Source: a virus | Direction: 5' to 3' (one strand) | Virus record (IMG/VR): IMGVR_UViG_3300045125_000155 | DNA: 64,000 bases | Translations under genes and position numbers: made by a program | Notes under the pieces: generated by a model | The model's input: only the letters and a program-made list of their open reading frames with translations | The model's database searches: none | Told to the model about the DNA's origin: nothing | Shown here: in pieces, positions 16,473 to 30,843 of the stretch | How the letters are laid out: every line of letters starts with the position of its first letter | Position numbering within the stretch: the stretch's first letter is position 1

Positions 16473-16949
16473 TTAGCCGCAAACCGGATCGCCGGTCAAC
16501 GGATTGAAACCAAGACGCTCGATAAGCCGCTCTTGCCGTCCATCTGCAACCTCGAAGAATCCCGTGGCAACGAGTCGCTCATGGGGAGTCATTGTTTCAA
16601 CATCGTCGGTGGCAATTTCAAGAGTCGGAGACTTGTCACCATCGGCAGCCATGACGACCTCAACCGCAACTGCCTTGAGTCGGTCTTGCTGCTCATCAGT
16701 AAGATGCGACAGCCAATCTCCATAATTGATGATGATATTGTCAATCCGATAAATTGCGCCACGCAACTTTTCGATAGTTGAGTGTTGGTCATACCGTCCA
16801 ACATTATCATCATTGTTGGACTGCAAGATTTCTCCGAATTGATCGAAGTCGTAGACAATTTCAATTGCCAAATCAATCAACTTCTGAAACTTAGGCCAGT
16901 TCTCGGGATTCTTGATGATTTCCTCGAAACGGATATTGACCTTATTCAT
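16473..16949 (-). CDS. Hypothetical phage protein
   Basis: 158 aa; motif 18 nt upstream; its TAA stop is part of the next motif. Confidence 0.75.
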   Translation of the reverse strand: MNKVNIRFEEIIKNPENWPKFQKLIDLAIEIVYDFDQFGEILQSNNDDNVGRYDQHSTIEKLRGAIYRIDNIIINYGDWLSHLTDEQQDRLKAVAVEVVMAADGDKSPTLEIATDDVETMTPHERLVATGFFEVADGRQERLIERLGFNPLTGDPVCG

Positions 16950-17700
16950 GCTCATAGAGTTGATCCTGAAATTTTAGCCCTGAATTTGCGCTTCCAGACG
17001 TCATCGGTTGCACCTTCATCTTCTTCAGATCCGGCTCAGGAACCAGGTTCTCAGACTTTTCCTCTACACAGAAATTAGCAACATTTCTTGAGTTCCAAGC
17101 AAATCCATCAAAGAATAGTGACGACTCAAGGTTGTGAGTGCAATGTTCTGCTTTGGAAACTTTTTCTACAATATCAACACTCAACCTAATTGATTTGGGC
17201 GTTGCAATCACAACTTTATTGAGTTCATCGTAGCGAGATGCACGAACATGAGAATGGATCAGAATTCTCCATCAAAAGAATTTCATCAACAACACGAAAT
17301 GTGTCTGACAAATTGAAGGCCTCGTCAGTAGCCAGAAAAACCTGTTCAGTATTGAATACGTCGCCATCTTGCATATTTCGCAAAATGCCGATCAGCGTAT
17401 CGAGTGCTGCGTCATCAAATTTCAGACTCAAATGAATGACCGTCGTCACGCAGTTCAAAGAGTCTCTTGTAGGCGTTTTCAAGACATCCCTTGTTGTTGC
17501 ACGAAGGGCACAAAAATCCTGGTTCAGAGGCAAATGTTTCGTCAACGTATGGATCGTCAGCAATACAGTACGAAATGTGATCGTACTTTTTCCGCGAAAG
17601 AACAGTCTGGTGTAGTGCAGACGATTGGCGAGACAAGACTCAGTTCTTGCAGAACATTGTTCATGCCTTGTGCTTCCAGTATGAAATTTTAGCCCTAAAG

Positions 17701-17734
17701 AAAAACCCCCGACATCTGGTTAGGACATCGGGGG
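17701..17734 (-). terminator. Intrinsic terminator
   Basis: CCCCGATGTC..GATGTCGGGG hairpin followed by TTTTT on the minus strand. Confidence 0.7.
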
Positions 17735-18281
17735 CTGGGCCATTTAGGTATTCCTACATCAGTCAGCGTTTTCCTGCTTTCCGAGCCGTTTCGCTCTGAC
17801 TGTTCGGTGGTCGTCACCATGCGTTTCTGATTACCTCCTCATCGTGTTGGGTAGGGATGCCCAATGATGAGTAGCGTTTTGAAGGTCAATGTGGTTGACC
17901 ATCCAGATGAACTCTTGCTTTCGCTTAAGTTCCTACCTAGTGCCTCGGGGCATTGAATCTAGGCAGTCGCAATACCAGACTATTTACTTGTCAACCATCT
18001 CTCATATTAGGATACCATCCTTTAGTGAGATGTGGCCTTTTCGTAGAACCTTCAAGTCAGCATTTGGTTGACGCAGAGGTTGGCCTCTGGAACATCGTCT
18101 AACCTTTGCCTCCGTCGAGTCCTAACAGCGATTGATCCAACTCTTAGTTCGTTTCGCCGTTAGTATGTCTCGTTGGTTCTTCTTCATCGACTCGATTTCT
18201 CGAACCGCTGAGGAATCACACCAGCATTTTCGTCATCTGTGTTACCTTTCGGTACTTTCTCGTGACTTGCGGCTGGCTGAC
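17701..18281 (-). ncRNA. Candidate large structured ncRNA (about 580 nt)
   Basis: Sigma70-like promoter upstream, terminator at the end, no ORF, many helices and GNRA loops. Confidence 0.65.
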
Positions 18282-18287
18282 GGGATA

Positions 18288-18316
18288 AGTATACCTTTCC
18301 GCCCCTCGCCCGTCAA
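18288..18316 (-). promoter_or_regulatory. Sigma70-type promoter TTGACG-N17-TATACT
   Basis: -35 at 18316-18311, -10 at 18293-18288. Confidence 0.7.
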
Positions 18317-18346
18317 CCTCTTTTGCCTTCGATTTACCCCTCATTT

Positions 18347-18745
18347 TCACAAGTCGTTGTCAGCACCAATCTTAGTTTCTTCGGCAATCTTTGCCTCGCT
18401 GCCACGGGCCTTGAACGGCTCACAGTCGAAGCATTGAACGCGATTAGGATTGCCACGAACGTAGTCCCCCTGCTCGTCACGGAAAGACGGCTTGAATACT
18501 TTTCCACAAGTTTTGCACGTATTGTGCTTCACAGGCTGGGCACGACGAGCATTCAAGCGACCATCAGGCAATTCTGGCAGCAAAATACCTGCACTTTTGC
18601 ACTCGGCAATCAGATTGAAAACAAAAGGCACAGGCTTCTTCCACTTCTCAGCAATCATGGTCGCAGTCATGCCGCCTTGCAACAAATCAGACATGATGTA
18701 AAGCCAACGCCTTGTAATCCGCTGTGAAGGATACTGCTCGCACAA
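18347..18745 (-). CDS. Putative HTH plus zinc-finger protein
   Basis: N-terminal MTATMIAEKW helix-turn-helix-like segment; CKTC and CFDC pairs. Confidence 0.65.
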   Translation of the reverse strand: MCEQYPSQRITRRWLYIMSDLLQGGMTATMIAEKWKKPVPFVFNLIAECKSAGILLPELPDGRLNARRAQPVKHNTCKTCGKVFKPSFRDEQGDYVRGNPNRVQCFDCEPFKARGSEAKIAEETKIGADNDL

Positions 18746-18774
18746 ATTCTTATCAATAATCAGACCGTTTCCAT

Positions 18775-19305
18775 TCAGACGATACTTTTTGAGAATCTTT
18801 TTGCGCGATTGATCGGAATCGAAAATGCAGAAGCCGATTCTTCAAGATTGTTGGTTTCTTCGTACTTGGCGACGAAATCTTTTTCGCGCTGATTTTGCTG
18901 CTCTTGCTTCCGAATCAACTTACGCTCAAGAACTTCTGATCGAGTCGGAAGATCATAGCCCAATGCCAAAAAGCGACTATGAACAATTTGCACATTTTGC
19001 TTTGTGCAACCCATTTGTTCGGCAATCTCTCGATATGTCAAATCAGTATTGAGAAGATTGAGGATTTGCGCAGTATTAGGATTCAGCTCCTTAACCTGCT
19101 CGACGGGCTTCTCAATCACTTCGGGAATCTGACTATCAATGTTGAATTCAACGCAGGCTTTGATAACTGTCGTTGCGCAAACTCCATAATAAGATGCAAC
19201 TTGCGTATAAGCATAAGTCTTTGTATTGCCATCGCAAAGGAGTTTAAGACATTCCTGTGCAATTTTTTCACGACGAGCCTTACGGTCTTGATGAGTCAAA
19301 GTCAT
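18775..19305 (-). CDS. Multi-HTH DNA-binding protein
   Basis: LTYREIAEQMGCTKQNVQIVHSR is a sigma region-4/LuxR-like HTH; two further HTH-like segments. Confidence 0.7.
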   Translation of the reverse strand: MTLTHQDRKARREKIAQECLKLLCDGNTKTYAYTQVASYYGVCATTVIKACVEFNIDSQIPEVIEKPVEQVKELNPNTAQILNLLNTDLTYREIAEQMGCTKQNVQIVHSRFLALGYDLPTRSEVLERKLIRKQEQQNQREKDFVAKYEETNNLEESASAFSIPINRAKRFSKSIV

Positions 19306-30767: not shown

Positions 30768-30843
30768 CTCCAAAGTGCTAACTCTATCTACTATTTTGTT
30801 GTCAAAGAAATGCGACTACCAATTATTCTATGCGCCAAAAAAA

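Follow-up and report, generated by a model that had tools for sequence, protein, structure and literature searches.

The gap between two protein-coding genes on the minus strand of a viral DNA of 64,000 nt (IMG/VR record IMGVR_UViG_3300045125_000155; the whole stretch analysed is called the window in the following) is confirmed to be a real, separately transcribed gene for a folded non-coding RNA of about 585 bases. A reading of the window from its letters alone (the sequence-only reading) had proposed a structured RNA of about 580 nt between a promoter and a terminator, and this proposal is supported by the folding energy of the interval, by covariation among homologues and by a contig assembled from an RNA library. 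That reading had also raised the possibility of a new class; we find no match in Rfam, ROOL and GOLLD included, and the RNA is very probably a real, stand-alone structured RNA of a new family within the large ornate phage-borne RNAs. It has the features by which a large ornate structured non-coding RNA is described, being longer than 400 nt, free of ORFs, folded into a covarying structure with several junctions and independently transcribed. To our knowledge, very few RNAs of bacteria or phages reach such a size and complexity. Two of these, ROOL and GOLLD, are phage-borne and have reportedly been shown in recent work to build RNA-only nanocages, the purpose of which is still unclear. For the whole of the reading that we favour, namely that a stand-alone structured RNA of a new family acts in trans as a folded particle, we estimate a probability of roughly 0.6.

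The two signals between which the sequence-only reading had placed the RNA, a promoter and a GC hairpin followed by a U-run, are both found (Table 1). The sigma-70-type promoter, TTGACG-N17-TATACT, matches the consensus at 10 of 12 positions and adjoins the stop codon of the upstream HTH/zinc-ribbon gene; from its position, transcription is predicted to start at about 18281. Promoter-like matches in the region do not exceed chance (2 sites vs 3.4 expected); among the homologous loci described below, the -10 hexamer is invariant and the -35 hexamer is retained in six of seven. At the other end, the terminator stem has 13 bp, of which 7 are G-C pairs, and together with its U-run spans 17736-17704; it is conserved in the homologues L007 and L017, where one pair changes from U-G to U-A.

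Table 1. Features of the RNA locus in window coordinates; hairpins, helices and domains are those of the predicted fold.
Feature	Coordinates	Strand	Description
RNA gene	17698..18281	-	About 585 nt, without ORF; homologues by nhmmer
Sigma-70-type promoter	18288..18316	-	-35 TTGACG at 18316-18311, 17-nt spacer, -10 TATACT at 18293-18288
5' hairpin H1	18215..18281	-	Variable outer stems, conserved inner motif, GNRA tip (GAAA/GCAA)
Hairpin H2	18181..18214	-	Invariant GAAA cap; 14 pairs, 3 compensatory
Domain D3	18045..18180	-	Most conserved core, 136 nt nearly invariant; multistem junction
Domain D4	17738..18037	-	300 nt, closed by long-range helix 18037-18033/17742-17738
D4 hairpins	18032-17996, 17966-17933, 17932-17909, 17903-17881, 17877-17833, 17818-17809	-	
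D4 three-way element	17802-17760	-	
D4 long-range helix	17971-17968/17823-17820	-	
Intrinsic terminator	17697..17736	-	13-14-bp stem, 7-nt loop, U-run
Upstream gene	18347..19305	-	Four HTH modules and C-terminal zinc ribbon; 322-347 aa in relatives
Downstream zinc-ribbon gene	17225..17664	-	About 220-256 aa in L007; here 35-, 73- and 112-aa ORFs

RNA libraries contain the RNA as a discrete unit. Four runs were aligned over 17300-18800, and one of the RNA runs (X3, 58 million letters) contains a 555-nt contig of the L007 type at a depth of 75. This contig spans 17718-18273 and aligns over 17731-18230 at about 90% identity, its unaligned ends corresponding, in the L007-type homologue, to the variant 5' hairpin and to the terminator half; it begins about 8 nt past the predicted start and ends in the terminator loop, limits that are those of an assembled contig rather than exact transcript ends, and it does not run into the flanking genes. 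The evidence consists of assembled Logan contigs, which carry neither strand nor level, and RNA libraries can carry DNA; a DNA contaminant would be expected to extend into the flanks, so that confinement to the predicted unit at this depth argues for the transcript without which the sequence-only reading would have given up its proposal. A second contig from the same run (484 nt) represents a more diverged homologue, in which the blocks 17781-17826, 17961-17993 and 18104-18199 are conserved, with the intervening parts exchanged for other sequence of the same length. When only RNA libraries were searched, parts of the RNA were found in 9 runs from 4 studies, some of just 6-18 million letters, and the RNA would seem sufficiently abundant for assembly even from very small metatranscriptomes of lakes.

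Homologues of the RNA were reached via its flanking proteins, after scans of DNA collections with exact patterns had failed. Seven exact patterns from the conserved RNA blocks had no match in the viral contig collection, an exact conserved-block pattern had none in the genome contig collection, and exact patterns from these blocks gave only one chance match (L001) in the metagenome contig collection. Blastn of the RNA against 50,697 phage records (INPHARED) gave no match, its core sequence strings are absent from the searchable literature text, and blastn, nhmmer and profile searches found no paralogue inside the window, where the RNA is single-copy. The 160-aa protein encoded downstream (16473-16955) has a 62%-identical relative on the contigs L007 (ENA) and L008 (JGI), each of which carries a full-length homologue of the RNA. 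A full HMMER search with the intact 322-aa upstream protein of L007 then gave four full-length relatives of 42-62% identity, and on every one of the contigs that encode them (L011/L012, L013-L015, L016 and L017) the RNA comes directly after the gene. In all seven related loci, the RNA lies directly downstream of the same multi-HTH/zinc-ribbon gene.

Other routes were less productive. The 132-aa ORF of the window had no homologue by word search, the 176-aa ORF had none in the viral contig collection, and relatives of UvdE were rejected as a way to homologues, L005 and L006 ending before the RNA and L002-L004 being unrelated phages. Two of these last contigs, large, phage-like and sharing only UvdE with the window, encode a Ro60/TROVE-vWA protein (L002:11631-13313 and L003:11620-13965); on L003, a 124-nt match to the tRNA model lies about 580 nt upstream of the Ro60/TROVE-vWA gene, with one 187-aa gene between them, and may be a Y-RNA/YrlA-like partner of the protein.

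In all, freshwater assemblies yielded five diverged homologues, of which two are full-length and three partial, with nhmmer E values from 1e-7 to 1e-138, the latter for L007/L008. The full-length sequences compared here are those of the window, L007 (identical to L008) and L017, and the partial ones are L011, L013 and L016. Parts of the stretch also occur in 20 public runs from 13 studies, nearly all of them freshwater and metatranscriptomes included. Judged from these comparisons, a group of uncultured phage-like genomes from freshwater share the RNA as a conserved feature; for the window, the term phage-like rests on its context only, namely five tRNA genes, an intron in a tRNA, small ORFs and a few PHROG matches.

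The RNA is predicted to fold far more stably than expected from its dinucleotide composition, with a minimum free energy of -197.5 kcal/mol compared to -158.5 +/- 6.6 kcal/mol for dinucleotide shuffles (z = -5.9; 0 of 100 shuffles were as good). The consensus fold that RNAalifold gives for the three full-length sequences has 185 pairs, 15 hairpins and 5 multistem junctions. Over all six rows of the alignment, 30 of the 185 pairs are compensatory and 13 half-compensatory (one-sided compatible), and 93.7% of the cells are canonical. When the 3' partners are slid by 1-3 columns, 2-6 compensatory pairs and 31-39% paired cells are obtained; in 500 within-column shuffles, the mean is 15.3 compensatory pairs (sd 2.5, maximum 25), with at most 90.9% of the cells paired. 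Covariation, which the sequence-only reading had named as a requirement for its proposal, is therefore seen, and the comparison shows that a predicted fold of about 185 pairs has been maintained by compensatory changes. The statistics are modest because the set has only five lineages, all belonging to a single clade in which local gene order is conserved (the consensus being built from three of the sequences that were counted).

Several hairpins have been wholly re-written with their shape kept, among them the outer stem of H1 and hairpin 17877-17833 of D4, the sequence of which is fully replaced in L017 and L013. The GAAA and GCAA tetraloops that had been noticed on the minus strand are real, and three GNRA tetraloops vary only within GNRA (GAAA/GCAA, invariant GAAA, and GAAA/GGAA), as is typical of loops that make tertiary contacts. 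A crude search of the consensus demonstrated no conserved pseudoknot or loop-receptor pair.

At the level of single domains, the six distinct sequences of H1 give 7 compensatory pairs over three stacked helices. The core domain D3 contains four invariant blocks (18171-18155, 18143-18132, 18130-18090, which is 41 nt long, and 18073-18055) together with covarying pairs, namely an A-U/U-A pair (columns 139-162) and an A-U/G-C pair in the closing helix, and the D3 hairpin 18089-18074 covaries at two pairs (C-G/U-A and G-C/U-A). Both long-range helices of D4 covary as well: the closing helix changes from GGCC/GGCC to AGCC/GGCU, a G-C to A-U replacement, and the inner one from UGCG/CGCA to UACG/CGUA in L017. 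Most of the helices that had been picked out in the window alone are recovered in the alignment. CAGTCAG/CTGACTG keeps 7 of 7 pairs in every full-length homologue, one pair changing from C-G to U-A; GAACT/AGTTC keeps all five of its pairs, with an A-U to G-C swap; and CCTAG/CTAGG becomes CCTCA/TGAGG in L017 and L013. The exception is the proposed long-range helix GGTTGAC/GTCAACC, which has to be rejected: its strands are complementary at 7 of 7 positions in the window, but at only 2 of 7 in L017 and 4 of 7 in L013, and these two homologues instead keep the local hairpin 17903-17881 with different sequences.

The alignments further show the RNA to be much better conserved than the genes that surround it. 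Pairwise identity of the RNA is 73-99%, compared to 41-62% for the upstream protein among the relatives and 36-50% between these and the window, and the flanking coding DNA is mostly not alignable at the nucleotide level. If our reading is true, the RNA constitutes a further family, unrelated to ROOL and GOLLD, with a 41-nt invariant core and with a conservation exceeding that of any neighbouring gene.

The comparison of L011 with L007 gives a different kind of pattern, with an identity of 0.53-0.73 over most of the upstream gene, of 0.80-0.92 across the end of the gene and the promoter, and of 0.98-1.00 in the RNA, the variable hairpins included. L011:2700-3254 thus has a sharp mosaic boundary relative to L007, where an identity of about 0.65 in the upstream gene gives way to the near-complete identity of the RNA. 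Since the variable hairpins are identical too, constraint alone is unlikely to explain this jump, and we infer, as the simplest reading, that the cassette of promoter, RNA and terminator was recently exchanged between phage lineages. The jump at the borders suggests that such RNA genes travel between phages as modules.

In the mechanism that we favour, host RNA polymerase would make the RNA in large amounts from its near-consensus promoter, early in infection. The RNA would then act in trans as a compact tertiary fold with GNRA-loop contacts and perhaps self-association, by analogy with ROOL and GOLLD (PMC12286853). By the same analogy, the folded RNA might bind or sequester a host or phage macromolecule (PMC12286853), rather than pair as an antisense RNA or serve as a leader, and it would pass from phage to phage as a self-contained promoter-to-terminator cassette. 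Taken by itself, this mechanism of a trans-acting, possibly sequestering particle is tentative, and we give it clearly less than even odds. A bolder version, in which the RNA forms an RNA-only higher-order particle or a catalytic core by virtue of its own fold, is made at a very high level and is swapped as a cassette among freshwater phages, seems to us slightly less likely again. The RNA would in any case be a new subject for structural work (cryo-EM, probing), and it would offer a second ecological setting in which to ask what large folded RNAs give phages.

Where the sequence-only reading had seen two HTH-type genes directly upstream of the RNA, there is one gene that is frameshifted in this assembly: its L007 relative is a single 322-aa protein, the 176-aa and 132-aa ORFs of the window match the two halves of that protein, and the matching frame switches at 18781-18799, a stretch with A5 runs. 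The AlphaFold model of the protein (mean pLDDT 75) shows four HTH modules of three helices each and, after them, a small beta zinc ribbon; Pfam gives weak matches to HTH_23, Sigma70_r4 and MarR_2, and Foldseek gives generic bipartite DNA-binding HTH domains only (Tc3/mariner, Mu transposase, MarR; E>0.1). The zinc-ribbon gene on the other side lies outside the RNA and marks its 3' limit. We note that both flanking genes are split when compared to their intact L007 relatives, the upstream one at the frame switch just given and the downstream one within 17415-17664, in each case at A5 runs or close to them. The pattern points to assembly errors in the form of homopolymer indels, which would also account for the sparseness of long ORFs in the window.

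The alternative that survives best, which we nonetheless consider unlikely, is that the RNA serves the adjacent four-HTH/zinc-ribbon protein as its dedicated partner, either in an RNP as a scaffold, decoy or guide that regulates transcription, or as a titrating RNA. The RNA starts about 40 nt past the stop codon of the gene in all seven loci with a homologue of 320-347 aa, and the contig of one distant protein homologue that has no zinc ribbon (269 aa; L018) holds no such RNA, both of which would fit a partnership. However, these are related genomes in which local gene order is conserved, and inherited synteny may account for the adjacency; a promoter of its own precedes the RNA; the fold of the protein matches generic DNA-binding HTH domains only, with no RNA-binding domain found by Pfam or Foldseek; and the RNAs of L011 and L007 are 99.3% identical while their proteins are 62% identical, which argues against tight co-evolution. 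For a link between the RNA and the protein, the conserved adjacency within related genomes is the only indication. On L018 we also observed a group I intron (L018:1795-1980) and a Pistol ribozyme (L018:93-155), whose 47.9 bits exceed the gathering score.

Considerably less probable is that the RNA is a giant cis-acting leader, which by attenuation or processive antitermination would control the downstream zinc-ribbon gene through the terminator at 17736-17704. With about 33 nt between this terminator and the next same-strand start codon, its position would suit such a role, as would the order of RNA and zinc-ribbon gene that is common to the window and L007. Yet the terminator is strong and conserved, the RNA-library contigs end inside it and do not enter the downstream gene, a length of 585 nt with 5 junctions is well beyond known leaders, and no alternative anti-terminator pairing is seen in the consensus.

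The reading of the RNA as a stand-alone molecule of a new family was compared with known families by covariance models. At the gathering score, Rfam 15 recognised five tRNAs and a group I intron in other parts of the window and nothing at the RNA; with permissive filters, a search of 1 kb of the window gave only terminator-like noise at E<=10, and three diverged homologues (L017, L013 and L008) gave no consistent match at E<=10. Detection of the group I intron at 30506-30743 by the same scan serves as a positive control. The models for ROOL (RF03087) and GOLLD (RF01998) remained unmatched both at the gathering score and at E<=10, as did the Rfam models for OLE, raiA, HEARO, RNase P RNA, tmRNA and group I and II introns at the RNA, so that none of the families put forward for comparison by the sequence-only reading matches; ARAGORN found no tmRNA in the window. 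That the RNA is a very diverged form of a known family (ROOL, GOLLD, OLE, raiA, RNase P RNA, or a group I or ORF-less group II intron) is in our view highly improbable. It would agree with a size equal to the ROOL average of 581 nt (PMC5737381) and with a phage-like setting with tRNA genes near, as for ROOL and GOLLD (PMC12286853); against it stand the lack of a covariance-model match at E<=10 in the window or in three homologues, the recovery of an intron by the very same scan, and the absence of exon-like flanks from a unit that is bounded by its own promoter and terminator.

The stand-alone RNA of a new family that we propose does resemble known ones in general character. With ROOL it shares a size of about 580 nt, a phage or prophage origin and, as far as its predicted fold goes, many stems and multistem junctions (PMC5737381, PMC12286853), and the likeness extends to frequent nearness to tRNA genes, an apparently high abundance, and the lack of a known protein partner or function (PMC5737381, PMC12286853). 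ROOL, however, comes from Firmicutes, Fusobacteria and rumen samples (PMC5737381, PMC12286853), whereas the present RNA comes from freshwater; ROOL has three pseudoknots, whereas none was found here by a crude search (5 junctions are predicted); and ROOL has few highly conserved nucleotides, in contrast to the long invariant blocks of the present RNA. GOLLD is likewise a large ornate phage RNA that was in part first seen in lake metagenomes, lies near tRNAs and is better conserved in one part than in the other, more variable one (PMC12286853), but it is usually longer than 800 nt and its universally conserved region is at the 3' end, whereas the RNA described here has 585 nt and a 5'-central core (18180-18045). 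OLE and raiA are also large or complex, abundant bacterial non-coding RNAs with an unresolved biochemical function; they differ in being chromosomal, in Firmicutes and Actinobacteria, with defined neighbours (Oap protein partners for OLE), while the setting here is phage-like. ROOL and GOLLD occur in phages or prophages and often beside tRNA genes (PMC12286853), and the phage-like window with its five tRNA genes offers the same setting. The nearest tRNA gene lies 1.8 kb upstream of the RNA in the window; in the 8-kb relative L007, no tRNA gene was found.

The statement of the sequence-only reading that the RNA holds no credible ORF is true in all six frames and for any reading of the stop codons. 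TAA, TAG and TGA all occur in every frame within the RNA interval, so that no stop-codon reassignment opens a frame, and alternative genetic codes were rejected. A conserved small ORF in the 3' part (AUG at 17820) was rejected as well, the alignment showing it cut to 16 codons in L017. Homopolymer frameshifts in the assembly meant that the check for a hidden ORF deserved care; the independent assemblies (ENA, JGI and Logan) have no ORF here. That the locus is a degraded or mis-assembled protein-coding gene, as the frameshift-split genes on both sides might lead one to suppose, can be dismissed almost entirely, since these assemblies, L007 among them, have 6-13 stops in every frame over the length of the RNA, the window and L007 differ by 81 substitutions that are distributed 22/28/31 over positions modulo 3, without codon periodicity, the only shared mini-ORF is the one so reduced in L017, and the changes come as base-pair swaps.

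Two further observations concern other parts of the window. Positions 29141-30050 on the minus strand hold a second ORF-free unit of about 900 nt, with a similar promoter, a folding z of -8.2 and no Rfam match. This unit has two short neighbouring motifs in common with the RNA, CTGGTATTGC exactly and TTGACAAGT[A/G]AATAG with one change, in swapped order, which may reflect a shared module or chance. Around the intron-containing tRNA, inverted repeats at 30429-30443 on the plus strand and 30791-30805 on the minus strand begin with TTGACAACAAAATAG, which differs by two changes from TTGACAAGTAAATAG, a conserved loop motif in the RNA; this likeness is probably due to chance or to promoter-like sequence.
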